A stretch of DNA of 64,000 nt from Bilabrum cf. latius. Taxonomy: Eukaryota. Every line of letters starts with the position of its first letter. The first letter of the stretch is position 1. Below the pieces are notes generated by a model, which saw only the letters and a program-made list of their open reading frames with translations, made no database searches and was not told where the DNA came from. Made by a program: the position numbers and the translations under genes. This document shows positions 40,381 through 64,000 of the stretch, one piece after another. The stretch covers positions 1,674,001-1,738,000 of the forward strand of contig OZ237736.1 of NCBI GenBank assembly GCA_965178125.1, read 5' to 3'.

Positions 40381-43032
40381 TTATTCATCCTAGTGGCAGG
40401 ACCGCGTTGGAGATAGCAGCCGGCTGAAGTAGCTAGGAAGCCTACGCTCCCCTGTTGGTAATGATTTGGCTACTGGCTCACGCTGATGCTGAGAGGGCCT
40501 GATCTGCCGATCTTGGTCCTTGACCTTGTTATCTTGGACCAGATATCGTCGAACTGGACCCTCCGATCGGTGCCCCTACGGCTCAAGAACCTGCTTGCCT
40601 GTGTATGCTACAGGGGCCTGTATCGAGCGTCGGGTTGCTATTCTCATCGACTGTCGCGGCCTTCCCGTAGAGTGTTTCGCGTCTCTTGCAGCCACTGAAG
40701 ACGTACGAAGTGGGGAACCTCGTTTCCGTGAGTAGACATGGCCGTGGTCTGGGGCACACATACTGACTGGAACCTGCCGGAATCTTCCGGACGATCTCGA
40801 TGGGCTGCGATGCTTGGCTACTTCTGCTTTTCGCTGCCGCGGAGAGACTGACCAAACTGCACCACTCAAGGAAAATTGCTCACCGCGGTCTTCACGGTTC
40901 AGTAACGCCTCAAGGTGATCGAATCGAGCTGACAGCTGCCTGCGCCATGCCACACTAGATGCGCCCTGTTCAGCTGGATCAGCGCCTGGTTCTCGGGTCA
41001 CTCGTCGACTTCCTGCTGTCGTTTCAACCCCTCGAATACTCCGTTGGTCACCATGTATGTCGAGGTCTTCCGACTCCCAGGTGGATCTAGCGCCTGTTTT
41101 CTCGCCGTAAACCGCTGGCATGATAGTGGGTGCTAGATCTACGGCAGAAGTGTGTTCAGGAACTGTCTGTCCGCTGGCAGGTGTGGTGTCTGTGTTGTGC
41201 TCAGGAACTGCTGGCCTGCAAGGGTCAGCAGTGTCTGCATCCTGCCCGAGATTCGCTGCCGTCCAAGAGGAAGAGGTGTCTGCATCCTGCCCGGGAGCCG
41301 CTGGCGTCTAAGAGGAAGAGGTGTCTGCATCCTGCCCGGGAACCGCTGCCGTCCAAGAGGAATAGGTGTCTGCATCCTGCCCGGGAACCGCTGCCGTCCA
41401 AGAGGAATAGGTGTCTGCATCCTGCCCGGGAACCGCTGCCGTCCAAGAGGAAGCGGTGTCTGCATCCTGCCCGGGAACTGCTGGCGTCCAAGAGGAAGAG
41501 GTGTCTGCATCCTGCCCGGGAACCGCTGGCGTCTAAGAGGAAGCGGTGTCTGCATCCTGCCCGGGAACCGCTGGCCTGCCGCGTTGGAGCACGGCATCTG
41601 TGACTCGGCCGATAGGTGCTGGGTTGGCTGTTATGCCTAGTTTTCTGCTTCTATTGGTGGCATCGAGCTCAGCTTGGCAAAGCATGGCTTCGTGGTCCAG
41701 TCTTTCCCAAATGGCCCACTGCTTGGCCGCATGTACGTCATCTTGAGTGCCCAATTTCAGATACTCAAGCGATGTTGCGGGGTCCCACGGCCCAGCTGCT
41801 ATTGTGCCGGTTGCAGCAATCGCTGTAGCTGCTGGTGGCCCTCCCCGAGCGCCCGCGCAACTTCCGGTGCTCCCTTGGAGTGGAGTTTTTGTCTGGACCT
41901 CCTGCGCTACCGCTGCGGACTACCCCTGGCTGCACTCCGCCTGTGTCTGCGCCCTGGTACCATTTTCTTCAGTCTGGCTCCCTGCACTGCTTGCTTCCGA
42001 CTGCCGAATTGTCAAGCGGCTTGCCCCATGGTCGGCCTGGCACTACTCTTGGAGCAGCCGCCGCGCCTCGGTTGAGGCCAAGCTCGCCCTGATCATTTCC
42101 ATGCGTCGGAGAAGGGTGCTGCATGAGCCCGTGTCAGCAAAATGTGCATAGCTACCTGCAAGCATGAACTTCTTCAAGCAATCCATGCACCGACCCCATC
42201 GCTGGTTCTGTAGAGCCACACGAGCCAAGCGTTGCTCGAGCTTCCGGATTGGCCAATCACACGTGGCCATAGAGCGATTCTACTTAGTGAATGAATCCGC
42301 GTACTATCTACACTATGCGGGCCCGTCTGTCTTTGCGAGCTGTATCCACCGACACGTATCCTTCAAAATGTGCAAGTGGCCTTCAACTACACCCTCAAGC
42401 TCCGCCGCTGCAAGTTCCACTTGTCTCATCTGGTGCTTAGTGGCTTGCAAGAGTAAGCCGCTGATTTTTGCAGCGACCAAAGCACAATCGACCGCCTGCT
42501 ACAGCTACGCCCTTGATCGCAGGGATGAGTCAATTATGAGGTCTGCCTCCAGTGGCGTGCTACGCAAGCCCGATTCACCACGCAGCTTTACGTCGCTTTT
42601 TTCTCCCCTGAATATGCGCAGAGGCGGGGTGCAGGTCTGGTTCGTGGGACTGCTTGCCAAGTATTTGGGGCTTATATCGAAGTATGTGAATGCACTATCG
42701 CCACCAGCCTTTGGGTCGCGACCCCCAAAATCATGCCATACGCCTTTCGAATGCTATACAGCGCGTCTTTTTGGGGGGGTTTCTAATCCTGTTTGGAGCA
42801 CAGGCACAGAAGTTGTTGCATCTCGAACAAGGCGATCAAGGAGCACCGCCCCGCGCTCAGCTCTTATCCCCTTGCCGGCAGCGAAGCGCGACTCTAGTAA
42901 TTTGCCTGATAAATTCGGGTCACCTACATCCGCGTATCTAGTCGCTTGCACTGCGTGCTGCGAACCTGATTTCGGTTCTTGAAGCCTTGGTGTCCTCTGC
43001 GACTGCGACTTCGTTTCGACGGCATCGCACAT
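40381..43032 (-). CDS. Hypothetical protein (~883 aa) with 15-aa tandem repeats
   Basis: ORFs 42754, 42043, 41533 and 40576 are co-frame with only TAG between them; ATG 43032, TAA 40381. Confidence 0.7.
41231..41575. repeat. 45-bp coding minisatellite, ~7.7 copies (DTSSSWTAAVPGQDA on the minus strand)
   Basis: Unit gtgtctgcatcctgcccgggaaccgctgccgtccaagaggaagag recurs every 45 bp. Confidence 0.9.
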
Positions 43033-46359: not shown

Positions 46360-46547
46360 CTTAGTGAGATGACCCAAGAAAGCGCTGTGCCAGCCATGGG
46401 ACGGCTCTTGGAAAAACCCACGATTTTCTGAATACTGCACGCAACAATATCATCATAATCGTATTTCCGTTCTGTTGCCAGATTCTTGGCTTGCAAGGAG
46501 GTAAACAAGCCCATAGTTGTGTAGAAACCACGAGTGGTTCGTGAAAT

Positions 46548-49500
46548 ATGGGTTGTGGATCAAGTAAGCTGTCGGTCGTTCCCGCAACGTAGTAGAAAGA
46601 CGGGCAACTGGCTGGATTGATTGGCTCAACAGATACTACGACAGCTGCGTCGCCGAAGAAAGCTACGAACCAGTCCATGGATATGCCTGGCTCCGGCAAG
46701 ACAACCGCGTCTAAAGACCAAGCTTCAAGCGCTACAGGAGCAGCTTCTGGTATGACCTCTGCACCGCAGCAAGAACGGATAACTCCCTCACCGTCACGCG
46801 ACCCGGTGGCCAATGCTCAGAAAAAGGCAGACGGTGCGAGGCAGGGCGGCCCAGATTCTAGACCAAATGGCGCGGATCAAGCTTCTGGGTCGAAGACTAG
46901 TAGTGATCCGGATTCGGCTGCGCTGCCGGAAGCGTCGCCAAAGCGAAGGCCCGAAGCATCCAACGAATCGAAGCTCTCACCAAGACCGGCGAGCTCTTTG
47001 GGCAAACACATATCCGCTGAAGTCCTGGCTGAGGGCAAAGAGAAGCTTAAGCACGTGACGGCTCCGACAGAGGAAGAACTCGCAAAGCAAAGAGCAGAGC
47101 TGCGCAATGACGGCGCAGCACCCATGTTTAACGTTGAGGACCTAGACTCGAGATTTGAACGTGTGGGTATCAAAGGGATTCGTCTCAAACCTGAGCCAAA
47201 GAAAAAACGGGTGAAGGGTGCGTCTCACTTTAAGGCAGCTGCCGATGCTGTCATGTCGGCCTCGAGCCTCAACAAGGACGCGGCGCAGTCCAGGGACAGC
47301 CAGCCCCAGGACGCCGCTGCGCCCGGTCCGTCACAGCTAGCAGGCAAGCCCAAGTTCGGACTTTCCCCGGAGGACATGGCTGGCTCCGACGATGACTCAG
47401 ACCTGTCGAGTGTTGGGAGCAGTGACGACGACGACGACGAGGTGCTGGATGAGGACTGGCTCGCGACCGGCACGGCGGACGACGAGCAGGCTGGGGCCGG
47501 GGATGGAGACCAGGAGGGATCGGAGGAAGCCGAGGAAGCCAAGCCGACCGAAAAAGACGAGGAAGAGGAAGAGGAGGATGACGGCGTGGACTGGTCCGAC
47601 CTGGAGACCCTCCGGGCCGTGCTGCTGCGGGCCCAGCTTACCGCCGAAAATAGGCGCGAGTTCGTCGAGGCGCTGCAGCGACAGACGTTCTAGCCGGGTT
47701 CCTACGTGGTGCACCAAGGCGAGAAGGGCGACTCGTTCTACATCATCACGAAGGGCGAGGTGGTCGTGTCCAAGACCCTCGAGAGCCAAGAGGACGAAGA
47801 GTCGTTCAGCGCGGTGGGACTCGTCATCGACGGAGTGGACCCCAGTGGCAGTCGGACGAGAGAGGGTGTGCTTACACGCCTGTACCAGGGACACTTCTTC
47901 GGCGAAATGGCGCTTCGACAGAAAAAGCCGAGGAACGCCAATGTGCGTGTCTTGTCGTCGCAGCCAGTCCAGTGCGCGCGGATGGACCAGGAGAGGTTCC
48001 ATGCATTCCAGGAACAAAGCGAAAAGTTTAAGAGCATCATTGGCCATCTCATCATTGAGAAGGAAGCATCTAAGAAGAAGAGGGACGAGATGAGGCGCAA
48101 ATACCTGGAGGAGGTGGAGGAGGAGGAGGAGGAGATCATGGACAACAAGAATCACGTCTTGGAGATGGAGCCGGTGCACAAGTCCAAGAATGCAGACGGT
48201 AAAGTTGTGTTGAATGGGTATGTCTTGCAGTACAAAATCGGACAGGGCGCTTTTGGAAAGGTGTACTTGGCCCAGAAGGAGGGGGAGGAGCGTCTCTACG
48301 CCGTGAAGCGCGTGGACCAGGCCGCCATGGCGAGGCGGAACCGTCTGCCTGGGGGTCGGCCGGGGAACGGTAGCGGCTAGAAGGACGCAATCGCTAGCTA
48401 GGCGAGCAGTGCTGGCATGGAGAACTACGACGATGTCACTCGGGAGGTGATGGTCATGCAGCGGTTGCAGCACCCCAACATCGTCCGTCTGTACGAGTGC
48501 TTTCAGGAGAAGCCGAAAGGTGATGGAGCGACGAGGCGGAGCCAGTACCTGTACATGGTGCAAGAGTTCATTCCTAACGGAACTATCCAGGAGGAGGAGC
48601 TGGAGAATGAACCGATTGACCCTGACATTTGCAGGCACGTGTTCCGTGGTCTGCTTGCCGGGCTGCAGTACCTCCACTGGCAGGGCGTGGTGCACCGCGA
48701 TATCAAGCCGAGCAACATCCTGATCGATGAGAACAACAACGCTAAGCTCGCTGACTTTGGCACTGCTGCTCTCGTGCCGCCCGATAACGATCGACTAAGC
48801 GACGTGCAGGGCACACCGGCATTCCAACCGCCGGAGATTTTCACGATGGAGCGGGGGTCTGGCAACACGTACAGTGGGTTTGCATTTGACATGTGGTCGG
48901 CAGGGGCAACCCTATATTCGCTTGTGTTCGGGCGGCCCCCATTTATGGCAAAAGGCCAGGTGGCGCTGGTGGAGGCTGTCACCCATGACGAGCTGAAGAT
49001 AGAGGAGAGCAAGGTGAACCCATTCTTGCGCAACTTGCTCATGGGTCTGCTTGAGAAGGACCCGTCCAAGCGCATGACGCTGCCCGGCGCGATGACGCAT
49101 GACTGGGTCACGCAGGAGGGGGCTGACCCTCTGATCACAGCTAGACACAAACGGTTGCGTCTCCACGACATTGCAGAAAGGTCGCGCATGGCATAGCTCG
49201 CATCGATTACCGTGCAGAAGGTGGCAGGTCCCGAGCAGCAGGTAGGCACAGCTGCCGCAGGGTCATCGAGGGCACAGTCCAAAGGTGCTGGAGCGTCCGG
49301 TCGCCCAACACCTCCACCTCGAGGGCTGCGCCCGCCGCCACGTCCAACAGTGCGGATTGGCCGGTAGTCCTCCAATGAATCCACTGATACATTCGCCAGT
49401 GCTGTGCGTGGATCACCCACCACACCGACGTCGGGAACAGGCATAGGGTAGGGCCGCCCTGCAGTTGCCAGTCTCAACCTCGGGTTACGAACAGGAGATA

Positions 49501-52500
49501 CCGCTGCACCGCCTACAACAAAGAGTGGGCAGCGCGCGAGGAGACGGAGCGTTGCTGTGGCCGGATACCGATACAACCCTATCACACCGCTGTCTGCTCG
49601 TGATGGATTCGGTGGTGGCTAGTCACTCCTGAAGGGAGCTTCTACGTCTCGCGGTGGCGGCAAGGGCTTCAATAAATGGGGATCAAAGGAGGCTGCCGGT
49701 GGCAGAGGAGACGCCCCAGCATCGGGTGCAGGTGCAAGCGAGCGGCCGGGTGGGGGCCCCAGTGGTGCAGAGCTACTCGCGAAGAGTTTAACTCGAACCT
49801 AGTCTGCTCCCTACTTGCTTCCGAGCGTTCGAGAGGACCCGCTGCTCAAGTCGTAGACTGCAGTTAGTCGGCACGAGTATGAAATGAGGCAGAATCGTTT
49901 CGGCCGCCTTTGGCGCACCAAAAACCACAGCCATGCAAAGCATGGCATGCCCCACGCTGGGCATGCCAAGGGCAAACGGCGCAGCATCTTCATCAAAAAC
50001 GACGTGGAAGTCGGAATGGAGGGCGTTACGCAATCCCCCCGCATTGACCACGAGCTTCAAGTGAGGCCGGGTAGGGGCCATGGCGGCGGTGTAGATAGTG
50101 TCGGATACTCTAGCCCAGATGCTGCGGCTGGAGGTGGTGCTGGGCCTGCCACTTCAGTTTCGGGCAGCAGTGCTGGACCACGGGGCGGACGAGTGGTCGG
50201 CCTTCAGGAGAAGAAAAGGGCCGAAACTCGCCGGAAGAAGCAGCAGGAGACGCAGGCTAAGATTCGTGAGCTGTGCCGAGCAACGCAGAAAAAGAGGATG
50301 CGCCTTTTCAAGGGCTACGAGGGTCAGTTGGACAGCAAGACGCTCCAGGTGCTCATGGACCAGGGCAGGCTCCCAATCGCAGCAGAACGTGCAGCGGCTC
50401 AAGTTGTCGACATGGAAATTTTCAGCGGTGGGGGAGGGAAAGACGATGCCAAGTCAACGGACAGTGACGCGAGTGCCAATGGCAACGCAAGCCCGCCAGG
50501 TCATGTTACAATGGAAGGACTTGGGCCAGCTTCACCTGGAGCTGGCAGTCGAAATCTGGGCGGCAGCAGCGGCCTCGGATTAAATTCTTCCTTGAAAGGC
50601 AAGCTTGGAGGCTCCGGTGAGCTCAGCAAGTCCAAGCAGGTTCTATCCCGGGCTGAGAGTGAGGCGAGACTTCACAAAGGTGGCCTCAGTCGAACGAAGG
50701 ACTTTGTGATGGTCCGCCACGAAGCTGCTGCCGGAGGTGCGGATGGCGGTCGAGCAATGAAAGGAGTCGTATTCACTTCGAACACTGATTCGCTCAGTCT
50801 TGTGGGTGGCTTGAGAAATGCGCAGCTGAACAAGAGGGGTCAGGGCTAGGACCAGCTGGGAGGCATCGGGGCAACCCATGTAGAAGCAAGCGATGAAGAC
50901 TCGTCTGACGACGACGATGCCAGTCTGGACAGCGCTAGCGAATGGGCTGGCGATGGTGGCGGGCGCAAGAGCGGCATTAAGAAGAGCAGAAAGAATAGGG
51001 TCGAGTCGGGCAGCGACAGCGATTCGGACAGCGACAGCGATGGCGAGGAGATCGTCGCATTGGATGGTAATGACGATATCAACGACGTGTTTGACGAGCT
51101 AGAGGCCTACAAGCACAAGCATGACCCCTCGCTGGACGACCTATCTAAAGAGGAAGAAGCTAGGCTTGCCGTCGCTTTGGCCAGTCTGTCTGTGGACGAG
51201 ATGGCAGCCACAAAAGCAGGTGAAGTACCTCGGGCAGCAGATGCTGCCAGGCGTGGGGAGCAGCTGGAAGGCGACACCGTCGAGCAAGAGAACGAAGATG
51301 ACAGCGATGCTGACGACGTTCACGAAGCAGGATCTGCTGACGGCCTCCGCACTCCGCCCTTGGTGGAGAAGCAAAGTGATGACAGTACGCCTCTCTCTCC
51401 CGCTGCGAGCAGCGACGCAGCAGTTGGATAGGAAGCAGTGAGCAGGATGTAGGCCAGCAAGGTGGAGCAGAAGCATGCCAAGCAAAGGGCGAGAGAGGCT
51501 ATTCCCATGCGGACAGTGCGAAACAACTGGGGTGGTGTGGACCCTATACGAGGCCTTGTGTGGGCTGCTGCTGAGCGCTAGGGCAAACCTGACTACATGG
51601 AAGATCGTTTCCTTGCTGTACCCACCGTGTACGATCGGCGCGATGTGGGAGGGGCACAGGAGCCAGACTGGGTCAGGGCTTGTGGTGGGGCTGCCACATT
51701 TGCTGTGTTTGACGGCCACAAAGGGGACACTGCGTCTGAGTACCTGCGACGTGGCTGGTAGCGGAAGCTGCGAGATGTGCTTGCGAGACCTGAGTCTCGG
51801 CCACCATAGTTACCTCCGATGTCAGCTCGTGATAGCAGCCGTGGCGTAGATGGCGTCAGTGCAGCAACAGGTGGTGCTTTCTCCCCTCGACCGGGCGACG
51901 AGGAGGCCGCTCCCGAGCCTGACTTGCCGATTGGTGTGGCCAGCAGTGGAGACAGCATGGCAAGGGCTCTTCAAGCCGCGTGTACTGAATTGGATGGCGA
52001 GTTGCTGGCTCACTGCAAGAAATACGATGTTGGAGACGGCTCCACTGGAACTGCTGTGGTTTTTATGAGAGATCCTGCAGGTGTAGCGGGTGACGAGGCC
52101 GGTTTGCTGTCTACAGCGAAGGCTCCACTTCGAGTTTGGTGTGCAAACGTTGGAGACACTCGGGCAGTACTTAGTCGAGGTGGCATTGCTGTTGAACTCT
52201 CCAAGGACCACGGCACGGATGATCCCGAAGAGGTCGCTAGGGTACACAGCGTTGGTGGGGCGATCAAGCAGCGCAGGCTGCAAGGCATTCTGGCTGTGAC
52301 TCGAGCTTTCGGTGACATGGAGCTCAAGGTTGACTACGAGGGTCGATATGTTGAGGACCTTACGGGGCCACCACTTATTGCAATGCCGGATGTCGTGCGT
52401 CGTTCCATTGATGCGGAGCGCCCAGAGGATGAGGCCGAAGTGGTAGACGATGATGATGACCCTGATGAGTTGGATCGTGTTGGTAGGGACGCCAGGAACA

Positions 52501-53018
52501 GCTCCGCGTCTGCTCGGGACCAAGAGCTAGGCGTCGATCTCACGGCTGGCCGAGTAAGTAGGGGGCGTGATAGCTCTCTTAGTGGCGAGAAACTGGGTCC
52601 AACAGAGGACCGGGACGAGAGCAATTTCAACTTGCTGTCTTCAAAGGCGGGTGCATCGAAATTGACCACCGAGGACAGTCCGAGCAAGGGTGCAGGAGCA
52701 GCCATGGCATCTAGGTCTAAGGAATCGGACGGAGCAGATCGAGGCGTGCTTGACGGATGGCGCACAGCTACAGGGTCTGATGAGTTCGTCATCATAGCAT
52801 GTGACGGTCTGTGGGACGTCATGAGCAGCCAGTAGGCCGTGAACTTCGTACGTCGACAGCTTGCTGAGCACGGTGACCTTGTGCGAGCTGCCAATGAGCT
52901 CGTGCAGAAATCACTTGAGCTATTCACCATCGACAACGTCACAGCAATCATCGTTGGTTTCATGAGAGAAGGTGCTGGCGAGCCTGCAGTTGCTGGCGAC
53001 AGCCTGATGACCGTGTAA
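46548..53018 (+). CDS. N-acylated cNMP-binding domain + CaMKK/SnAK-like kinase + PP2C (PPM) phosphatase fusion, 2156 aa
   Basis: One intronless frame with only TAGs. MGCGSSK start; F*PGSYVVHQGEKGDSFYII.KGEV...GHFFGEMAL...PRNANV (cNMP); IGQGAFGKV, YAVK, HRDIKPSN, DFG, GTPAFQPPE (kinase); R*GKPDYMEDR, FAVFDGH, ANVGDTR, LSKDH, LAVTRAFGD, IACDGLWDV, DNVT (PP2C). TAA at 53016. Confidence 0.9.
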
Positions 53019-53101
53019 TTGGTGCATAAGTACATCTGCTAGATTTTGTAATTTGGCTTTAGCTTAACATTCAATTAATTGTAGCGTGCTCGGCAATCTC
53101 A

Positions 53102-53133
53102 CCTAACCCCCCCTAACCTAACCCTAACCCTAA
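53102..53133. repeat. Short degenerate (CCCTAA)n tract, inverted relative to the downstream TTAGGG arrays
   Basis: cctaacccccctaacctaaccctaaccctaa seen directly. Confidence 0.85.
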
Positions 53134-53143
53134 ATTCTCCAAT

Positions 53144-53514
53144 CGCCCACCTCCATCCGCCGCCCTCTGCAGGCACCACCCACCAGCCACATCCCAAGCG
53201 CCCACCTCCATCCGCCGCCCTCTGCAGGCACCACCCACCAACCACATCCCAAGCGCCCACCTCCATCCACCGCCCTCTGCAGGCACCACCCACCAGCCAC
53301 ATCCCAAGCGCCCACCTCCATCCGCCGCCCTCTGCAGGCACCACCCACCAACCACATCCCAAGCGCCCACCTCCATCCACCGCCCTCTGCAGGCACCACC
53401 CACCAGCCACATCCCAAGCGCCCACCTCCATCCGCCGCCCTCTGCAGGCACCACCCACCAGCCACATCCCAAGCGCTCGCCTCTATCCGCCGCCCTCTGC
53501 AGGCACCACCCACC
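53144..53514. repeat. Subtelomeric 55-bp C-rich satellite, ~6.7 copies
   Basis: Unit cgcccacctccatccgccgccctctgcaggcaccacccaccagccacatcccaag with alternating variants; abuts the TTAGGG array. Confidence 0.95.
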
Positions 53515-53767
53515 TTAGGGTAGATTAGGGTTAGGGTTAGGGTTAGGGTTAGGGTTAGGGTTAGGGTTAGGGTTAGGGTTAGGGTTAGGGTTAGGGTTAG
53601 GGTTAGGGTTAGGGTTAGGGTTAGGGTTAGGGTTAGGGTTAGGGTTAGGGTTAGGGTTAGGGTTAGGGTTAGGGTTAGGGTTAGGGTTAGGGTTAGGGTT
53701 AGGGTTAGGGTTAGGGTTAGGGTTAGGGTTAGGGTTAGGGTTAGGGTTAGGGTTAGGGTTAGGGTTA
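53515..53767 (+). repeat. Internal telomeric array (TTAGGG)~41
   Basis: Near-perfect hexamer run with one variant near its start; unique sequence resumes at 53768. Confidence 0.97.
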
Positions 53768-55613
53768 CAGTACCATCCTAGGCCAGGCCCGGGCGCCGCG
53801 AAAGTATCATGTTCCGCAAAAAGTATCATGTTCCGCAAAGACGGTGTTGCCGCGCAGTGTCCAAGTGGTCGCAAGATCGCACTGAGGCAGATCTGGGCCA
53901 GTTGCAGATATGCAAGCAGTCGACAAGAGGTGCAAGTGATTAGCAATGCATATTTGGTGTATGATTATGCTTGTCTGCTTGGTTTACAATGAATCTCGGC
54001 CTCGGTCTCCTCGGTGGTGCTGCCCGTGGGTGACGAGCACCCAGGGGGCTGCACGGGATGGACGCCCACCCGGCGAGTCTGGACCAAACCGCGTCGTGCA
54101 AATTGGGTTTGCCAAGGAGGTGTGCCCTGCTGTGTTTCGCCCGCGAGAATAGGGGGTTGTCTCCCCGTCGGGCAGGTGCTCCATCCAGCTCGCCCGTCCG
54201 TGACTGAGACAGCACGGGCCGCGACAAGTGCGCGAGCCCGGGGATCAAGTCAGCGGCCGATGGCAGCGAGCCGGCATGAAGCGCGTGCACGAGGAGCTTG
54301 CGCTTCCCATGCACTGCCTGCCCCACCTCATTGCGGATCTGGGACATCAGGTTCATCGTGTTGCCACACACACCTCCACACTCGACGATCGGATCTACAG
54401 AGACACCTGTCCCGGGATGCTGCTCCTCGTCATTGGCCTGCTCCTTCTCGCCCCGGGGGCACGCGCTGCCTCGAAGCACGCACCCGCGCTCCCGCCCGAC
54501 TCAAGGACTGAGTGCTGGGAGGGTGCGCGGGCAGCCGCGTGAGAGGATGACGGGCGTGCCGCCGAAGGCCGAGTCCAGGAGCTGGGGACGGGACGCATCG
54601 TTGGGACTGCCCTGAGGAGACCAAAGAATCAACCGCCATCCGTACGGATCCCTATACGGTTGGCCGGTCTGACTCTCTGCTCGCCCACCGCACAGATCTG
54701 CTCAGTTCCATGCAATGTTTGCCAGAAGCGGCGAGAGGGTCTCATCAGCACAGGTGGGTCCTAAAGGCTGCCTGCAATGCATAGAAAAAGAATATATCGA
54801 TTGAAACTAATTAATAGCCCCTCGATGCATGGCAACATACCCGAGTGCTGCCATGAAAACCGGACAACGCACAAGCACGTTAGCAGACCAGCGATGATCC
54901 CATACAGATGCCAGAACCTAACAGAAACACCAACAATCAATTTGAATGAATACAATAGAATCAAAATACCTGGCGGTTGTTGTACTCGGGCTATGCGGTA
55001 CCTAGCTGTTCTGTCTGCAAACGCCATGGCGCGCCCCAATGAGGCGAGACCAAAAGCAGACCCACAGCAGCATGTCACCTTGAACATACAACGACATATG
55101 GCAGTAAGTGGTAATTAACATGAATCCCAACAGGCCTCAGTACAGTTGAGCCGGTATGTGGCGCTGAGAGGTGTGGTTGCGCCAGAATCCGCAAACGGTC
55201 GTGAACAGCGGAACCAGCATGCGCGGCGCCGAGGACGTCCAGCAGGGCAAGCCTGTAGCAGGGTGTGCACCGGTTCACGGTACCGATGCTTGGATGTTTG
55301 TGGGCTAGGAATCTGTTTTGTAATACACATGATAGGGTTAGCCCTAACCCTTCAGAATCGGATGCATGGTTCATTTACTTCCATGAGAAGGGCTGACGTC
55401 CTGCATGCACTACATTAGCCCAAATACAACACACGCACATGTCGTCTTGAAACAGTGCACCTCTTTATATTACAGTGGATATAACTCATGGCGAGAGAGG
55501 CTTGTCTGTCTGCAGTGCTGCAATGCAGCTCTTCACTGCTGCACATGCAGCTCGAGGTTCTGCAAGTTATCTGTTCTGCATAGAAAATCACAGAACATGA
55601 CACCTCACTGGCC

Positions 55614-58600
55614 TCATGTCCATTTCTCGTCAAACCCCCAGCCTTCTTGCTCAATTGCTGGGATGTGTACCCACCGTGGAGCGGTGCCAAGAAGAAGGAT
55701 CTCGATTTCGCCACGTGCCCGTGAAATATCTCGCTGGCCCATACCACGCAATCCAGCGCCGGGCACTGATGGCGCCATGTTCTGGTCACCACGAATTCCT
55801 CTAGGTCGTGACAGTGCTGAAGTCGGCGGCTGCGTGATGGCGCTGGAGGCTGCTCCCAGCGGCGGCTGCAACTCGGCAAGGCCGTCACTACCAGCCTTGT
55901 CGGTAGGCATCTGCAGCAATCGACCGATTGGATCATCATCGCTGCCAGCCCCACTGGATGCTGATTCCGAGGCAGGCCTCAATGGTTCCGATGCCCTGCT
56001 GCCGATCGCAGTTCGGTTGAATGCGTTGGCCTCCGTTCGTTCTGCGGGACTCGAGCTCGCATGCTCGCCGGATTGCCGCATGTGCCTTGATCGCTTCTAT
56101 TGCCCTTCTTCCTCATCGCTCTCATGGCCGGGCCAAATATGTCCCAACGAATCTAGGCTATGCTCAAGAGCAGAAGTAGTGGTGGATGCCTGTGACAGGA
56201 TGCTGTCGCCATCGTCAAGAGGACGAGCACGTGTGTACATCCGAAGAACCTAGCTGCAGTGTTGCGATTGAGGTATGTGATACGCACGCCAAAGCTCGTG
56301 CCTCTGGTCGGCACTCACGCCTGCTTCTCCTGCTTCTGCACGTGCTCGGGCCACCATGGATCGGACATCTCCCACAGCTTTCAAGCTTTGAGCTAGTGAC
56401 CTGCGTACCAGCCCCTTGCCTGCTGCCTTGTAGTACGGGGCTTCTGATAGTGCAGGCACTACTGATGGACTACAGGGCAGGTTAATGCAGAGACCAGCGC
56501 CGTAGTAGCCTACATCGATGACACGACGCAGTGACCCATCCTACCTGTTCAGCGCCCCTCTGAAGACTTGAGGACAATCAAAGCCTGGGTTCATCCACTT
56601 GAAATGATCTAGCACGACAGACTCCACGTGCTGGGCAATGGTAACGGCAGGCTGGGCGGTTCTTGGTGGTGGCGAGACGTCGAGCACTGTCTAAAGTCCA
56701 GATCGTGCAATCGACGGCTGGCCTCCCCTTGGTCGCTTCGTTCCAGGCAGAGGGGGCCGCTGCAACCGATCGGGCAGCAATACTGCAGACCCAATCACAC
56801 ACGCAGGTAAAAGCCACACTGATACCATACGACGAAACTGCTCGTCTGCGAGGGATGGCTGTCCGTTCTGCCTGGTGCCTACGACAGCACGAAGAATTGA
56901 AGCGACGTACGAGGTCCGGACAGATGACTCGGCAGCAAGCTTGCGTTGCATGGTCCAGGATAACGATGTTATCAACGCATAGCCTAGCTTGGAGGCCCTA
57001 GCAGATGTCGTGGTCGCCAAGTCACCCCTGAGATTCCCAGCGTTCTTAGAGCCGCGCCACATTGCGCCTGCATCTGGCCTGGGACTGAAGGCAATCTTGG
57101 ATATGCACATCTGCAAGCCAACTAGTATTGCACTCCTTGAGCACCTGAGCCGAGATAGGAGCAGCCCGTACAGTGCTACAGCTAGGCTGCCCCTTGCTAG
57201 CATTCCTTTCCGTGTGCCACTGCGAAGGTGGAGCTTTGCCAGGTGCATTTGCGCAAGGTAAAGCTTCCGTAGCTGCTGCTCCATGACTACAGCGTGGGAC
57301 ATGTCTGTAGACTTGGCAAAGTGCAACAATAGCCTGGACCGCTCAGGCAGTCGAGACAAAATGTCAGCCTGCACGTCAGCCCGTACCATAGCACGAAAGC
57401 CGGTGATTCCGTTGTTCACACCGCTGATGCCCAACTGGAAGTGCTCGTCACCTTGCGTTGATACGAGTCCAGAAAGACCATACCTCTCGGAGATCCGAGA
57501 GATCTGCCATGTCATGCCCAAGCCTTCTGCCAACGCACACAGGCTCCAAGACGTTACCATGACCTCACAGACGGCAAGCACAGTCCACGAGTTCAAGAAC
57601 GTACCGTTGCACCCCCCAGCCCTGACTGACTACACCGCATTTCCGATTTGATCAATGATGGCGGATGCAACCGCCATTACATTAGACTGCTCAGGCATAC
57701 TGCTAGCAGATTGCAAACAGTCACGGACGCTGGACCACTCCAGTGTCGAAGGCCCTAAGTTTCGAAGAACTGGCCTAGTAGCGGGAAGCCACGTTACGGC
57801 AATTTGCTCTGCAACAACCTGAGACCATGCATCTGTCCGTAGAGCCACGCAGCCTTCCATACAGCATCTGCTCATCGATGCAGCTAGCGCCCACATCGCC
57901 GATCGCTGATACGTGGGAATCCTGTCTGCACCACAGACAGCTGCTACGAGCAGTCTTTCGATTCTGCAAAGTGCCCGACGGAGTGTATACCTGAGCATTT
58001 CCAAGTGATTCATGATGGATGTCTTCTTCACGACCTCCACGAAGCATTGCGAGAATGGAGCCACTGACAAATGCTCGATAGTGTCGGCGCGATGTTCACT
58101 CCGTAACTGTCCGTACTGCAGTTCAGCTGGTAGCACTACGGAGGCCAGCATCAGACTCATGGTTGACGCGGGTACATCGAACTCGCCCCTGGTCGATCCA
58201 AGGATTCCTGCAGTTAGCCTTGCATAGCTTTGAGTGAATGCCGTTTGCAGCCCAAGGTATATCCGCCGGCGGGTTGGCAGTGCATCCAGAGCTGCCTAGG
58301 CTCGAATCATGCTTGCAGTTCTCGAACTCAAAGTCGATGGAGCATGTGCATCCGATTCAGCGAAGTGGCGAACCTTAGAGAGAACTCGTCGGCGAAACTG
58401 GTCATATGCAGAGTCGTGCGCCCCTGGACTAGGCTGAAATGCTCGGAATGCTCCAGGCTGGTACAAATGCAGCTGAGATGACAGCATGCAGCCAAGTGAC
58501 ATAAATGAAGGCATGCCGTAGTCGTTGCCAGTGTCATTCTCGGCTAAAACACGTCGGTGCACGGAAAGCACGTCACCCCAGGATAGCGTAGCTGGAAGCA

Positions 58601-61600
58601 TTCCTTGGAAGGTTCCGGCGTACTCTCCAACGGACGCCAGCGCCGCATATGGACGAATTCGCTCTTGCATCACGGCATACCGTGCGTGTTCGAGCCGTGT
58701 TCCGTGTATGACTCCTCGCAGCAACTGATCCCGACAGCTATGCATGTACTGAACTGTTGCTGGGTTTGGTACAGCAACTGACACTGAGCGTTCACCACAC
58801 ACCTCAAAGCCTACGCCAAAACTGCAGTACATGGCCATATCCGCATCCTGTTGCGGCCACAGCTGTCCGTACGGATGAATTATGGCTGCGAGATCTCTCA
58901 TACCTCGGCGTTGATGACGTCCAGTCCAAGCAGGTGCTCGCGCCGCGCCGCGGTACAGCTGTTCCCGAGCACTGCGTGTCAGTGTTTTCCTGCTCACCTT
59001 CCTGTTTGTAGCGCCTGACGCCGATCGCTTGCCATCTCCTGTTGGACCAAACCATTCACCTCTGCGGCCTCTGGCAAACTCCTCATCGCTCTCATCCATT
59101 GCGATCTCCCGAGCACGTTCTTCTTCTGCCTGCTGGGCAGCCAAGTCTTCATGAGCTTTGCGAAGCTGTCCCTGTGCTGCCTGTTGCAAGAGAGACATAG
59201 GATTGCATGCTTTGCAGCCCACTCGCTAGGCGTAGAACACGGAGCACCTGGCTATCTGTCTCATCAGCAGTATCATGAGGAAGCAGTTGTAGTGTGATAC
59301 TAAGTGCAGATGATCAAGTAAAGAGTCGTGACTCAAAGACCACTCGTAGGAGCTGCTGTGCTATGCTTCATCATTCTCCACGCCACGTTGCTTAGCGAAG
59401 TCGTCGTCCTCATCCACGTCCACGTCGGTGTCGTCTGAATCGCTCTGCGCAGCAGCACCACCGCTTATTCCCACGCCTTCATTCTGCTGAGCCTCGTCAG
59501 AATCAGAGTCAGAGTCACTCAACTAGTCAACGGCTGGGTAGCCAAGCCACCGTACCCAATGAAATGCGCACGAAAGCAACCGGGATGGGCTTCTGTGCAG
59601 GGTGTGAGAGCCAGGCCAGAATCTACTTGTCTGTGGACCAGGTCCACTCCCAGCGTGTGCGAGCGACGAATGGTATCCACCGGCTTGGCCTCCACCACGT
59701 TGGACACGTACCACTAGCTCTGGACCTAGCCAGTCGAGCCTGCTGGCAGCAGCCGTGAGCCCGCAGCCGAAGACGTACAGCACACAGCTTCGGATCACAT
59801 CCACATGGGAGCCCTGGGTCCAGAAGCCTTCATGCATACTCATTTCTACAACACCCTCAGTATCAAGCGTTTGCTGCAAGGACTGAGACGGAGGTTCGAA
59901 CGAGTCTATCAGGTCACGGCAAAGATCAAGCAATCCACTAGGTACAAGAATAGATACCGTAGCAGCACCAACATCGAAAAGTTGAACGTGGATGTCAGCA
60001 GCGAGTCCGCGCAGTATACGAAGCGTTGGCAATTTCGACGATTGATCGTTTGCGTTTTCTGCTTGCGTGCTGACAGCCCTACTCCACAAGGTTCCAGAAT
60101 GCGGCACCACTGAAGCCCACCCTTCCCTTGCAGCCTTGTCGACATCACGATGGAACTATCGGGTGCACTCCTACTCAATTAGTTTGCTATACTTGGTAAC
60201 ATCAGACAAGGCCCCGGCAGCCAACACCCGGATGCTTGAGCCACCAAGTCCATTCGGACACTTCTGCTGCAGATCGGTCACCTTGGATCGTAAGCTATCA
60301 ATCTGCTCTTGGTCGCAACGACGCTCAGCCCACAGCATCGCAGTTTGCTAGTCTTTGAAAACGTCATCCCCGTCATCAAGGAATGCTGTCCATGATATGC
60401 GCATTGATCCGCCGGCAGGCGGCCGCTGTGCGTGCGGGGCGCGAACTACCACGCCAGTTGAGGGTGATTGAGACAAGCTGGTATACGACGGAAGCAGCGA
60501 ATCTGAGTCATGTACACCTAGAACGCCATCTGTGATCCAGTCCAGCAGTGCATGGTCCGATCCATCAAGCCCCAGTGGGCTTGCCAACGTGTGAGGCAGA
60601 AAGTGGTTCGAAGTCTCGTCTGCACTGGATCCATTGAGGTCTGCGACAGCTCCAAGAACAGTGAACCCATCTAAATCAAATGCAGAATCGCTGTGACAAG
60701 ACAGCGGTACGTTTCTGGAACCTGGTGCAGACTTGAACGCTCTATATATCGCAGGCTGGTCCGGAATTGTGCTGTCCATTGATCTTCGCGGAGAGGCCGA
60801 GCTTGACAGGCCTCGGCTTGCACTCGGAGTGACGGGCTAGCTGGATGTTCGACTCTCTTTGACAGCGACTTTCTTCCTTGCTGCGGCACGAGATCCTTGC
60901 CTTCGGACGGCGGGCAATGGAGCGAACCCAAGGCACATGCCTGCCAAGAAGTCCAGGGGGGATGACAGGTGCTGTAGAGGTCCAGACTCCGTTTCTGGTT
61001 GGGACATCTGATCGAGCGAGCTGCCAGTGGCCTAGCTGGCACCACGAGAACTACTGCTGTGGCTGCTTGCGGCGCCTGACGACTGTCGACGGCGGCTTGG
61101 CGAGCTGCCAGTGGCCTAGCTGGCACCACGAGAACTACTGCTGTGGCTGCTTGCGGCGCCTGACGACTGTCGACGGCGGCTTGGCGAGCTGCCAGTGGCC
61201 TAGCTGGCACCACGAGAACTACTGCTGTGGCTGCTTGCGGCGCCTGACGACTGTCGACGGCGGCTTGGCGAGCTGCCAGTGGCCTAGCTGGCACCACGAG
61301 AACTACTGCTGGGGCTGCTTGCGGCGCCTGACGACTGTCGACGGCGGCTTGGCGAGCTGCCAGTGGCCTAGCTGGCACCACGAGAACTACTGCTGGGGCT
61401 GCTTGCGGCGCCTGACGACTGTCGACGGCGGCTTGGCGAGCTGCCAGTGGCCTAGCTGGCACCACGAGAACTACTGCTGTGGCTGCTTGCGGCGCCTGAC
61501 GACTGTCGACGGCGGCTTGGCGAGCTGCCAGTGGCCTAGCTGGCACCACGAGAACTACTGCTGGGGCTGCTTGCGCCTCGTGACGATCGTGCACGAGTAG

Positions 61601-62292
61601 CCGTTTCAGGAAGTTCGAATCCCCGCATCTCACTGTGTGCTCCTGACATCTCTGCTCGGGCAGCGAGAGCAGCTTGGGCAGGCAGATATCCAGTTGGCGC
61701 GTACTAGCAGCAATCAACCAGCGATACGTATGTATGCAGATCTGACTCCTTAATCAAGTCGTCAATTAATTGTTTGTGAAATATTTCTGCATCAGCGCTG
61801 GGTGTATCGTAGACCGTGAGAAGATCGGCCAGCATGCCATTTTCGATGACATCGCTTGAGACTCCAAGTTCTCGAAGGCACTCCTAAATCTCTTCGACTT
61901 CGATGCCATCCATCTGCGATATAATAAACTGAAGTTCAATATACTGCGGTTGCTGCTGAGATGTACTCCTATTATCCCAACTGTAGCTCTGGCTTACTTC
62001 AGCTGGCGGATTCGGCTGCTGGGGATCGAAAGTGCGGATCATCTCTAATTTCTCTTCGGATATCTGCGTAACAATGCAACATAAGTATGTATTGAGCTGT
62101 CTGCGGCGGATAGCAAATCAATACTGCCCATATACTCCACATAGAACTCACTGGAACGTGCTACCAAAACAGAGCTCGACGATTCATTGCTCGCTGCAAT
62201 CTTTTGAGTACTTTGTGCATAGATTGCATCTAGCGTGTATCATCTAAGACTTTACATGCATCGTCAATGGAACACAAGGTTTCGTCAGACAT
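55614..62292 (-). CDS. Giant orphan protein (~2200 aa); exon 62063-55614 plus probable exon 62292-62152
   Basis: Seven tracked ORFs (55614, 56250, 56691, 57630, 58296, 59523, 60348) share one frame. I read the gaps and upstream region: ~6.45 kb with ~20 TAGs and no TAA/TGA until TGA 55614. A GTGAGT (62151)...CAG (62064) intron links it to ATG 62292. Confidence 0.8.
61016..61575. repeat. 84-bp coding minisatellite, ~6.6 copies (SPSRRRQSSGAASS[H/P]SSSSRGAS*ATGS on the minus strand)
   Basis: Near-identical 84-bp units, each with one in-frame TAG in the giant-ORF frame. Confidence 0.92.
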
Positions 62293-62503
62293 CTTTAGGC
62301 CGGTTCTGGCGCAAGCAATACTCAACGGAATATTGTGCGCGTCCCCCTCGTGGGGGGCGAGTGCCACCAGTGGGGGGTGCGTGCGGCGCCGCGCTCGACG
62401 GCGGAACACAGTATCTCAAACTGCAAGTGGTCTCGAACATCAAGATTTTTTTGTTTGCTTGCTGGCATTTTGTTTCTCTTCTGCCAGGCAGTGTGAAAAA
62501 TAT

Positions 62504-63451
62504 ATGTCAGACCATGCATCACCGTGGGCATTGCTTGGATTGAAGCCTGTAGACTTCGCAACGGAAAATCTCGCAATCCGCCGAGGCTTGTGTATCGCAG
62601 CTTGCGGCATATCGGTTGAAACCGTGCGGTGCATCTTTTAGGATGGTGCCTATGTATCTGCGCGATAGCGTACATCACTTCATAGTGTAATGCAGCGTAT
62701 TTGTGCGACAGATGACGGCAAAGTGCTGCGTGTCGACCCAAGCTTCTTGCTTGCGGAAACAGGCCAAAGACACTTGCGTTATGCTATCAATAGTATTAAA
62801 GAGAAGTCTGACGACGCAATCAGACGTGCCATGATGAAACTGGCTCCACAGAATGGGTTGGCGTTGCATGGAACCGGCAAGCACGCACCAAGCTCGTCGA
62901 AGCACGTCGAAAAGATGGCATGTGCTACTGCAGCTGAAGACGACACTGCAAATACTCAAAAGGGCTCATACCTGAGATCATCTGCCTCTGGGTGTGCAAG
63001 ATCGGAATCGAAAGGCAATGTTGGCTCAGGCTCCAGCCAGTAGCACCGGCGTGCACGGCGGGGCTAGTCCAAGGTCCACGGCCAGAAGATGCCGACTCAA
63101 GCCCAAGTATACTCGTGGCAAGAGGCAGTACTGCATCTGCGAACGCTCTGTGACGCATGCGAGCAGAAGGCTCACCTGACCGGAGCGGAAGCTCGCAGCT
63201 TGGTCAGATTGGCTAGCAGCAGCATCGAACCAGCTCTCGGGCGTCTAATGCAACTGGCGCGCGCAGACAAGTCTAAGAGGTCTGTGCCACTTAAGCGGAC
63301 TGCTACAGCGAGAACGAGCCTATCGCGTACACCCGTCGAGTTGCCCAAAAGGAGGAGAGGGGAGAAAAGGAAATTGCTCGCTGGGGATGCGACGCCATCG
63401 AAAAGGTGTAGGAGCATCCCTGGTGCAGTTTCGTTTCTTTCAGGGAAGTAA
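62504..63451 (+). CDS. Orphan basic protein (~315 aa), divergent from the giant ORF
   Basis: ORFs 62267, 62690 and 63089 are co-frame, separated only by TAGs (62639, 62666, 63041, 63065); TAA at 63449. NLS-like PKRRRGEKRK. Start ATG 62504 is inferred. Confidence 0.6.
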
Positions 63452-63546
63452 ATACTAGGTCAATACAGGTGGGCACTCGCCATCTCACTTCTATATCCAC
63501 CCAACACTCCCCCCTCCTAACTTCCAGCCAAATTGGCACCACGGCG

Positions 63547-63692
63547 CCATCCATCGCCCGCACAAACAACCTCCTTGCCCCGGCACAGCCACCATGGCCC
63601 CCATCCATCGCCCGCACACCCACCCTCCTTGCCCCGGCACAGCCACCATGGCCCCCATCCATCGCCCGCACACCCAACCTCCTTGCCCCGGC
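63547..63692. repeat. Subtelomeric 54-bp C-rich satellite, ~2.7 copies
   Basis: Unit ccatccatcgcccgcacacccaccctccttgccccggcacagccaccatggccc; abuts the terminal array. Confidence 0.9.
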
Positions 63693-64000
63693 TAGGGTTA
63701 GGGTTAGGGTTAGGGTTAGGGTTAGGGTTAGGGTTAGGGTTAGGGTTAGGGTTAGGGTTAGGGTTAGGGTTAGGGTTAGGGTTAGGGTTAGGGTTAGGGT
63801 TAGGGTTAGGGTTAGGGTTAGGGTTAGGGTTAGGGTTAGGGTTAGGGTTAGGGTTAGGGTTAGGGTTAGGGTTAGGGTTAGGGTTAGGGTTAGGGTTAGG
63901 GTTAGGGTTAGGGTTAGGGTTAGGGTTAGGGTTAGGGTTAGGGTTAGGGTTAGGGTTAGGGTTAGGGTTAGGGTTAGGGTTAGGGTTAGGGTTAGGGTTA
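63693..64000 (+). repeat. Telomeric array (TTAGGG)n, at least 51 copies, running off the window end
   Basis: Perfect hexamer run with the G-strand 5'->3' toward the window end. Confidence 0.98.

Follow-up and report, generated by a model that had tools for sequence, protein, structure and literature searches.

A possibly Y'-like, multi-copy gene module between two co-oriented telomeric arrays at a putative chromosome end of Bilabrum cf. latius

In contig OZ237736.1 of Bilabrum cf. latius (GCA_965178125.1), a long telomeric array is followed by 9.9 kb of gene-bearing DNA and then by a second array, which raises the question of what this segment is and how it came to lie on top of a telomere. 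To our knowledge, most known gene-carrying modules flanked by telomere tracts are those of budding yeast (Y', with a helicase) and retroelements that encode a reverse transcriptase (RT). The window analyzed here is the whole stretch of 64,000 nucleotides (positions 1,674,001 to 1,738,000 of the contig), which has a GC content of 59% and in which no tRNA is found. For its eIF2A, the nearest named hit comes from an oomycete, at 31%, and the GC contents of Halocafeteria (46.8%) and Cafeteria (approximately 70%) both depart from that of the window.

Tandem Repeats Finder and inspection of the sequence reveal the order 55-bp satellite, (TTAGGG)40.5, 9.9 kb, 54-bp satellite and TTAGGG up to the window edge, with the internal and outer arrays co-oriented, which confirms the two-array layout claimed in the earlier note. 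The last host gene, outside the module and given as context, occupies 46545..53018 on the plus strand as a single frame, 2,157 codons long, in which TAG occurs 18 times (cNMP-binding, protein kinase, PP2C). A short, degenerate telomere-like patch at 53101..53133 (minus strand; CCCTAA on the plus strand, perfect over 17 nt at 53117) is oriented opposite to both TTAGGG arrays. The C-rich 55-bp satellite (53139..53514, 6.8 copies by Tandem Repeats Finder) is broken off within its final unit where the telomeric repeats start and is probably the host chromosome's own end cap. The internal array (53515..53767, plus strand) comprises TTAGGGTAGA at 53515-53524 and a perfect 243-nt run of TTAGGG at 53525-53767 (40.5 units). 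On the far side, the C-rich 54-bp satellite (63547..63692, 2.7 copies by the same program), also broken off within its final unit at the start of telomeric repeats, is the module's outer cap. The outer array (63693..64000, plus strand) has at least 51 units and reaches the window edge; because the window ends within it, this array is described as probably terminal on the chromosome.

In this organism TAG is a sense codon, most probably for Gln, and it makes up 0.17 of the Gln-type codons in host genes and ORF1 alike. ORF1 and ORF2 of the module are open only when TAG is sense; with this proviso, the two orphan genes proposed earlier are both present, and ORF1 belongs to no known family. ORF1 (62117..55614, minus strand) points inward and spans 2,167 codons from stop to stop, with its first Met at 62042 and 22 TAG codons; a run of this length free of TAA and TGA has a chance of approximately 3e-18 at the local stop frequency. 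An 84-bp in-frame repeat within it (61016..61586, minus strand, 6.8 copies) encodes a 28-aa unit rich in Ser, Gly and Arg. ORF2 (62096..63451, plus strand) is divergent from ORF1 and spans 451 codons from stop to stop with 6 TAG, its likely start being Met 62504 (approximately 315 aa). Third codon positions take 16 of the 25 differences listed in ORF1 (p 0.0016); these differences were drawn from the 40 rows with the best support among 192, and some are in a region with indels. ORF1 is established, at the level of the assembled DNA, as coding and under constraint.

Among 1.84 billion proteins, 10 relatives of ORF1 are found at 35-88% identity, and none is found in viral contigs, genome contigs or the first metagenome scan. 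The database copies are only fragments, and standard annotation has missed the module, because TAG is sense here. A full-length counterpart is present on the metagenome contig L001, where a 1,902-codon ORF with TAG as Gln is colinear with ORF1 (27% identity across 998 columns and 22% across 666; the conserved regions of ORF1 are aa 477-860 and aa 949-1932), accompanied by a divergent 336-codon ORF and then a 49-bp satellite whose strand polarity matches that of the window's satellites. This contig, as assembled, establishes that a distant relative shares the gene layout; no telomeric repeat is present on it, and its non-coding parts give no alignment with the window. The divergent ORF is a weak positional counterpart of ORF2: the best BLASTP E value is 0.11, the whole-length score is reached by 10 of 500 and 7 of 500 shuffles, and that of the first 115 aa, a region picked post hoc, by 0 of 2,000. 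The similarity of the 55-bp, 54-bp and 49-bp satellites is at shuffle level (359, 223 and 485 of 1,000 shuffles reach the score), and strand polarity is the sole feature common to the three. In the literature searched, which included few subscription journals and no supplements, the element is undescribed, as is a TAG-sense code in a stramenopile.

Such conservation could reflect an autonomous telomere-targeted element in which ORF1 is an unrecognized polymerase, recombinase or nuclease: two large ORF1 regions remain colinear, their identity being 22-27%, and include short invariant motifs (e.g., HVQxFDVG, RxDAWSQV and RGSxNAGN), a C-terminal motif is conserved, and the two-gene layout is preserved alongside. 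However, no catalytic signature is common to both full-length members, FLDD at ORF1 aa 579 is not kept in L001, and Walker A and zinc-knuckle motifs are absent from ORF1 and its full-length counterpart. Pfam, PHROGs and PDB sequence searches with the ORF1, ORF2 and L001 proteins yield nothing above noise, including no Pfam helicase family at E up to 10, and sequence-level searches find no RT or endonuclease in either ORF; the earlier failure to recognize RT, endonuclease or helicase motifs thus held in domain, PDB-sequence and motif searches. AlphaFold2 models have a mean pLDDT of 31 (9-row alignment) and 36 (2-row alignment), too poor for use, and fold searches with the 2-row model (no match at E up to 0.001; best Z 6.1, to generic helices) are uninformative on the fold. 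For relative P0129, looked up in the ESM Atlas, the best score of 0.80 is inside the shuffled-protein range. An autonomous element is considered very unlikely. It is likewise highly improbable that the module represents a self-mobilizing class of telomere-targeted element restricted to one protist lineage with TAG=Gln, whose 2,000-residue protein, of new fold, would recognize CAGTACCATC, attach the module to telomeric repeats with no need of RT, helicase or a known nuclease, and perhaps help to maintain the ends.

For capsid and packaging genes, neither PHROGs nor Pfam gives a notable match in this two-gene segment, the viral fold search having used the poor model. Terminal inverted repeats, as in a virophage or polinton-like virus, were also sought; among the 25 of 113 inverted-repeat pairs listed, all are telomeric.

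The segment was previously taken to be unique DNA, a description that fails, as contigs from public runs carry copies 77-93% identical to it. The comparison uses runs X1, X5, X6 and X7 (X2-X4 and X8-X10 are left out), of which X7 covers 11 of 30 bins, mostly in the inner arm, so that its gaps carry no weight. Run X1 contains window-identical contigs together with variants of approximately 90% identity at the inner end and of 85% and 77% in ORF1 (a colinear 5,751-nt contig), and X5 and X6, from a second study, also carry a 77-82% copy. The contigs establish several diverged module copies per sample.

The inner boundary of the module is conserved and reads CAGTACCATC (53768..53777, plus strand) directly after GGGTTA. 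A second copy, approximately 90% identical, begins with GGGTTA|CAGTACCATC, identical in all 16 letters, on one contig of one run (X1, which may be the source sample) with a single telomeric hexamer visible; the predicted GGGTTA|CAGTACC junction is thus found again. This contig has 16 differences from the window in approximately 169 nt, carries GGGTTACAGTACCATC in the same register and has a loose end before 53792. Window-identical contigs begin 38 and 40 letters ahead of 53778, which fits the junction, with letters 53744-53777 masked. The 16-nt junction motif also occurs by chance at 25 viral loci, with telomeric repeats or further similarity in 0 of 25. Since the same telomere-side junction is present on a diverged copy, the join of tract and module is read as older than the window copy and not made by the assembler alone; the join of this chromosome to the module is a candidate from the assembled sequence. 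G-strand repeats in this orientation would not form a natural end at the module's inner side; the internal tract should therefore be interstitial, tandem or circular.

These results bear on a plainer reading, namely an ordinary host subtelomeric gene family that reached this end once through capture during telomere repair, or that the assembler positioned here via telomeric repeats. Codon use in ORF1 is indeed host-like, with the same TAG fraction as in host genes, and telomere failure in Pyricularia yields long interstitial tracts and subtelomere amplification (PMC8381367). Nevertheless, the window is gap-free at the internal array, the junction on the diverged copy indicates that the assembler alone is not the cause, and the module has 0 matches within the first 53 kb of the window, which together make this reading quite unlikely.

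The inner arm (53768..55613), which is 3' of ORF1 and without a long ORF, is the deepest and most uniform part of the module among copies. It is approximately 3-fold deeper than ORF1 in summed contig depth, with 391-602 versus 133 for the ORF1 core (plus 61 for the diverged copy) in X1, 26-34 versus 9.8 in X5 and 5 versus 2-3 in X6, figures that have no host-gene baseline and do not equal copy number. In one diverged copy (X5), identity is 93% at 55057-55222 versus 82% within ORF1. The arm contains a 19-bp tandem (53801-53839), a telomere-like palindrome (55332-55351) and a stable minus-strand hairpin (54595-54765; z -4.1, 0 of 200 shuffles), which is the best among 62 strand-windows and is 830 nt away from the boundary.

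A non-autonomous end-attaching retroelement (Terminon/HeT-A style), with RT supplied in trans by telomerase or another element, would account for part of this pattern. The inward ORF1 RNA would end in reverse-complement telomeric repeats, anneal to the G-rich overhang and be copied, and outer ends would be truncated and capped by telomerase. The ORF1 sense strand passes into CCCTAA repeats across a boundary that is precise and conserved, which is the polarity described for Terminons (PMC6431247); depth drops outward from the inner (3') end in X1, X5 and X6, as 5' truncation would produce, and the stable hairpin lies in the 3' arm. By contrast, no RT is found in either ORF at the sequence level, the choice of this hairpin from many windows and its distance from the boundary weaken its significance, and folding of the first 180 nt from the boundary does not exceed that of shuffled sequence (z -1.0 and 0.1). 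An Rfam search at E up to 5 returns no hammerhead, its 3 matches being weak and unrelated, and core-motif scans find none either, although a very deviant ribozyme is possible; CUGAnGA words near 54612 and 54745 were rejected as a hammerhead, being arms of one inverted repeat without the GAAA half. The outer end here is also not randomly truncated, as ORF2 and the satellite are present, likewise in L001. SART/TRAS elements have RT and endonuclease domains and carry poly(A) at their 3' junction; no such poly(A) is found, the inner arm has no A or T run of six or more, and the only such homopolymer of the segment is at 62446. Of the retroelement hint in the earlier note, the inward polarity of ORF1 stands and the hammerhead, poly(A) and RT are not found; we consider this origin unlikely.

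The best explanation, to which we give an about even chance, takes the 9.9-kb segment to be one member of a multi-copy family of Y'-like subtelomeric modules, which spread from one chromosome end to another by recombination via the telomeric tract. That the module is old and sits atop ordinary telomeres at several chromosome ends, a part of the same reading, is a matter on which we are evenly balanced. The proposal of a telomere-resident module placed onto an existing telomere is supported by its multiple copies and by the recurrence of the junction. By analogy, the module would move as yeast Y' does: a telomere that has become short or has broken, at an end lacking the module, may invade the tract beside a copy and copy it through to the end (break-induced replication, BIR), or a circle looped out between both arrays may recombine into another telomere. 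The former telomere would become the internal array, and the outer array would be maintained by telomerase. Erosion and healing of the outer end, with gene conversion beside the tract, would account for the greater depth and uniformity of the inner arm relative to the genes. The two proteins would most likely be non-catalytic helpers favoring retention or recombination of the module; as a guess from composition only, ORF1 may be a large, mostly helical scaffold and ORF2 a small basic nuclear protein. The inward polarity and the depth gradient are equally compatible with a retroelement.

The module shares features with several known systems. Like the Aurantiochytrium LORE-TEARS and subtelomeric mirusvirus-like element, it presents orphan-rich DNA inserted at a stramenopile chromosome end and flanked by two sets of end elements, whereas that insert is 269 kb, viral and bounded by rDNA and long repeats, and the module is 10 kb with two genes and true TTAGGG arrays (10.1101/2023.06.15.545109). 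Like MoTeR/FoTeR, it sits in telomeric repeats, leaves interstitial tracts and has tandem repeats near one end (PMC8381367; PMC12857005). Unlike these and the SART/TRAS non-LTR elements, it has no RT, REL or APE endonuclease that could be found. Terminons/Athena, endonuclease-deficient Penelope-like elements, share the inward sense that ends at reverse-complement telomeric repeats, the telomere-capped outer end and accessory ORFs without known function (PMC6431247); read from the DNA, ORF1 has this polarity and these telomeric caps. The module differs in that no telomerase-related RT or 3' hammerhead is found at the sequence level and its second ORF is divergent.

The closest likeness is to Y' of S. 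cerevisiae. In a recent account, Y' is an optional, multi-kb, multi-copy element with internal telomeric tracts of 20 to ~500 bp before it and the terminal telomere beyond, a tandem repeat inside, one or two conserved ORFs and several size or sequence classes, and it spreads by BIR and perhaps circles (10.1101/2025.11.13.688250). The module resembles Y' in these structural features, its optional presence at some ends being presumed; in the window it is flanked by the internal tract and the putatively terminal telomere, and the junction recurs on the second copy. Unlike Y', whose ORF codes for a helicase (Y'-Help1), it has no helicase signature, and it has a 2,167-codon orphan ORF, a divergent ORF and its own satellite cap, with copies that diverge to 77% and a relative at 27% protein identity. 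Its behavior appears Y'-like, and none of the enzymes of known telomere-dwelling elements is found in it. Whether Y' proteins act on telomeres is an open question even in yeast (10.1101/2025.11.13.688250). The module keeps its position signal, two-gene layout and large orphan protein over deep divergence without a recognized enzyme, and it would offer a case, independent of yeast, in which to study the persistence of Y'-like elements and a possible action of their proteins at telomeres.

The apparent end of this chromosome carries two co-oriented telomeric arrays, and the layout described in the earlier note (satellite, TTAGGG, approximately 9.9 kb, satellite, TTAGGG) is present in the sequence without gaps. 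The last host gene (46545-53018, plus strand) encodes a single protein with cyclic-nucleotide-binding (cNMP), kinase and PP2C phosphatase domains in one frame containing 18 TAG codons. Beyond it lie a short inverted CCCTAA patch (53101-53133, minus strand), a 55-bp satellite (53139-53514) and a perfect internal TTAGGG array of 243 nt (53525-53767, plus strand); the module from 53768 ends in a 54-bp satellite (63547-63692), from which the outer TTAGGG array (plus strand) runs to the window edge. The satellites and the internal array were also returned by a repeat search. With the patch just inside it, the 55-bp satellite is flanked by telomeric sequence in opposite orientations. Both satellites are C-rich on the TTAGGG-bearing strand, and in each the repeat onset interrupts the final unit; these partial units have the look of telomerase-healed ends, and such healing may have formed both.

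The module contains ORF1 (62117..55614, minus strand, 2,167 codons), which is directed inward, and the divergent ORF2 (62096..63451, plus strand). On sequence evidence, ORF1 is coding. With the last 1,194 residues as query, phmmer retrieved 10 proteins (35-88% identity) from 1.84 billion representatives. All are short pieces, which would follow where TAG is called as a stop; a word-based search added one piece from the N-terminal region (4 matches among 8,000 scored candidates). Third codon positions hold 16 of the 25 listed copy differences inside ORF1 (p 0.0016), a selected set drawn from the best 40 of 192 rows. In the GC-rich stretch of the inner arm (53768-55613), short open frames occur at 53940-54500 (minus strand, 186 codons), which had no match in Pfam, and at 54276-54542 (plus strand, 88 codons), and a third small gene is possible.

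A metagenome scan with P0138, a database protein relative, yielded one JGI contig (L001, 8,118 nt) among 77 candidate stretches. Its ORF of 1,902 codons, with TAG as Gln, is colinear with ORF1 (27% identity over 998 columns, E 4e-80; second block, 22% over 666 columns, E 6e-25). A divergent ORF of 336 codons is found upstream; its similarity to ORF2 is weak and involves a partly post hoc choice of region. A 49-bp satellite of 2.8 copies, whose G-rich strand is that of ORF1, begins 49 nt beyond the stop of the 336-codon ORF; in the window, 96 nt separate the ORF2 stop from the 54-bp satellite, which has the same polarity. No telomeric repeat was found in the 8,118 nt. Past the satellite, positions 1-54 are non-telomeric, and the word TTGCCGTA recurs in them at a distance of 50 nt; a second repeat unit may begin here.

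Read with the standard code, the window has no frame longer than 864 codons. Treating TAG as sense opens frames of 1,741, 2,158 and 2,168 codons that tile the window, and neither TAA nor TGA as sense gives such tiling. Judged from these frames, TAG is a sense codon here and TAA and TGA are stops; L001 uses the same TAG code. The TAG residue is most likely Gln. In an eIF2A orthologue (96% identical), Q faces the window TAG and 10 of 11 flanking residues are identical; Q also aligns with one ORF1 TAG in the database relative P0124 and with one L001 TAG in the best-conserved motif. Against Gln, TAG faces H in P0137 and P in P0130 (further relatives), and five distant eIF2A proteins have T at the TAG position. 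Most TAG positions in the 27% identity alignment lie opposite residues other than Q, and cyclophilin and PP2C structures have E at the positions aligned with TAG in most printed alignments, with a Q-like match in one. The accessible part of one survey lists TAG as Gln with TAA/TGA stops only for some ciliates and Iotanema (PMC11687900). The host is a GC-rich, intron-poor protist that appears not to be ciliate-like, with a weak lean to stramenopiles. A 45-bp coding repeat (41231-41573) alternates TAG and TGG at one unit position.

Pfam, PHROGs and PDB searches of ORF1, ORF2 and their L001 counterparts returned nothing of note, and the two full-length members, ORF1 and the L001 ORF, have in common neither an RT nor a helicase nor a zinc-knuckle motif at the sequence level. 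The earlier note's failure to recognise RT, endonuclease or helicase motifs is borne out at this level. A deeply diverged enzyme may still be encoded; an autonomous element with an unknown enzyme is quite improbable. Rfam returned no family, a hammerhead core scan no core, and no poly(A) was found. A branched hairpin at 54595-54765 (minus strand; -74.5 kcal/mol, z -4.1) is the best of 62 inner-arm strand-windows; it was rejected as a hammerhead despite a CUGAnGA word opening both arms. Approximately 270 nt beyond the ORF1 stop, a telomere-like palindrome (55332-55351; AGGGTTAG-CC-CTAACCCT) contains CCCTAACCCT, a word resembling the telomerase template, and could be a telomere-protein binding site or a fusion scar.

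Parts of the segment occur in nine public runs from five studies, and half or more of it in six. Contigs of four runs were compared with 53744-61010 at 80% likeness. X1, possibly the source sample of the window, contains window-identical contigs and variants that are approximately 90% alike at the inner end and 85% and 77% alike within ORF1; the 77% variant is a colinear contig of 5,751 nt. A different study supplies X5 and X6, both from one sample, and these contain contigs nearly identical to the window as well as that diverged copy. In X1, the inner-end variant opens with GGGTTACAGTACCATC, in the register of the window, and then diverges; this is the GGGTTA|CAGTACC junction foreseen for other copies, on one contig with one hexamer visible. 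The repeats at the inner junction are of the G strand, which rules out a natural chromosome end on this side. For window-identical contigs, 53744-53777 was masked; two begin 38 and 40 letters before 53778, which fits contigs cut inside the repeat. The module is multi-copy and old; an ordinary subtelomere, captured or mis-joined, is an unlikely source. Summed contig depth, which is no copy number and was compared only within the segment, is approximately three times higher over the inner arm than over ORF1 in X1, X5 and X6. For one diverged copy, likeness is 93% just within the inner arm and 82% in ORF1, so part of this gradient may reflect copies with genes below 80% likeness rather than truncation. 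Both the gradient and the polarity would fit a retroelement, by comparison with PMC6431247, but no RT or ribozyme was detected in the module, and this origin is rather doubtful.

The simplest account, to which we give an even chance, is a Y'-like life, in which recombination through the telomeric tract would copy the module onto other chromosome ends and telomerase would cap the outer satellite. The mechanism of spread is unproven, and the protein roles are inference only. A study of Y' (10.1101/2025.11.13.688250) describes optional elements that have one or two ORFs and a tandem repeat and in many cases lie behind an internal tract of 20 to about 500 bp; their spread is by BIR and perhaps also through circles. 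Invasion of interstitial tracts by telomeres is likewise proposed for Pyricularia in PMC8381367. Related work includes 10.1101/2023.06.15.545109, 10.64898/2026.06.25.734631, 10.64898/2026.07.28.741278, PMC13768787 and PMC9498494.

Among the papers listed by a literature search, none was seen to describe this module. RT is a feature of SART/TRAS elements, and the module differs from them in having no detected RT. It differs from Terminons in RT and hammerhead and, as PMC12857005 describes them, from MoTeR/FoTeR in RT. A helicase is a Y' feature that was not detected in the module at the sequence level, whereas the architecture of the module matches that of Y'.
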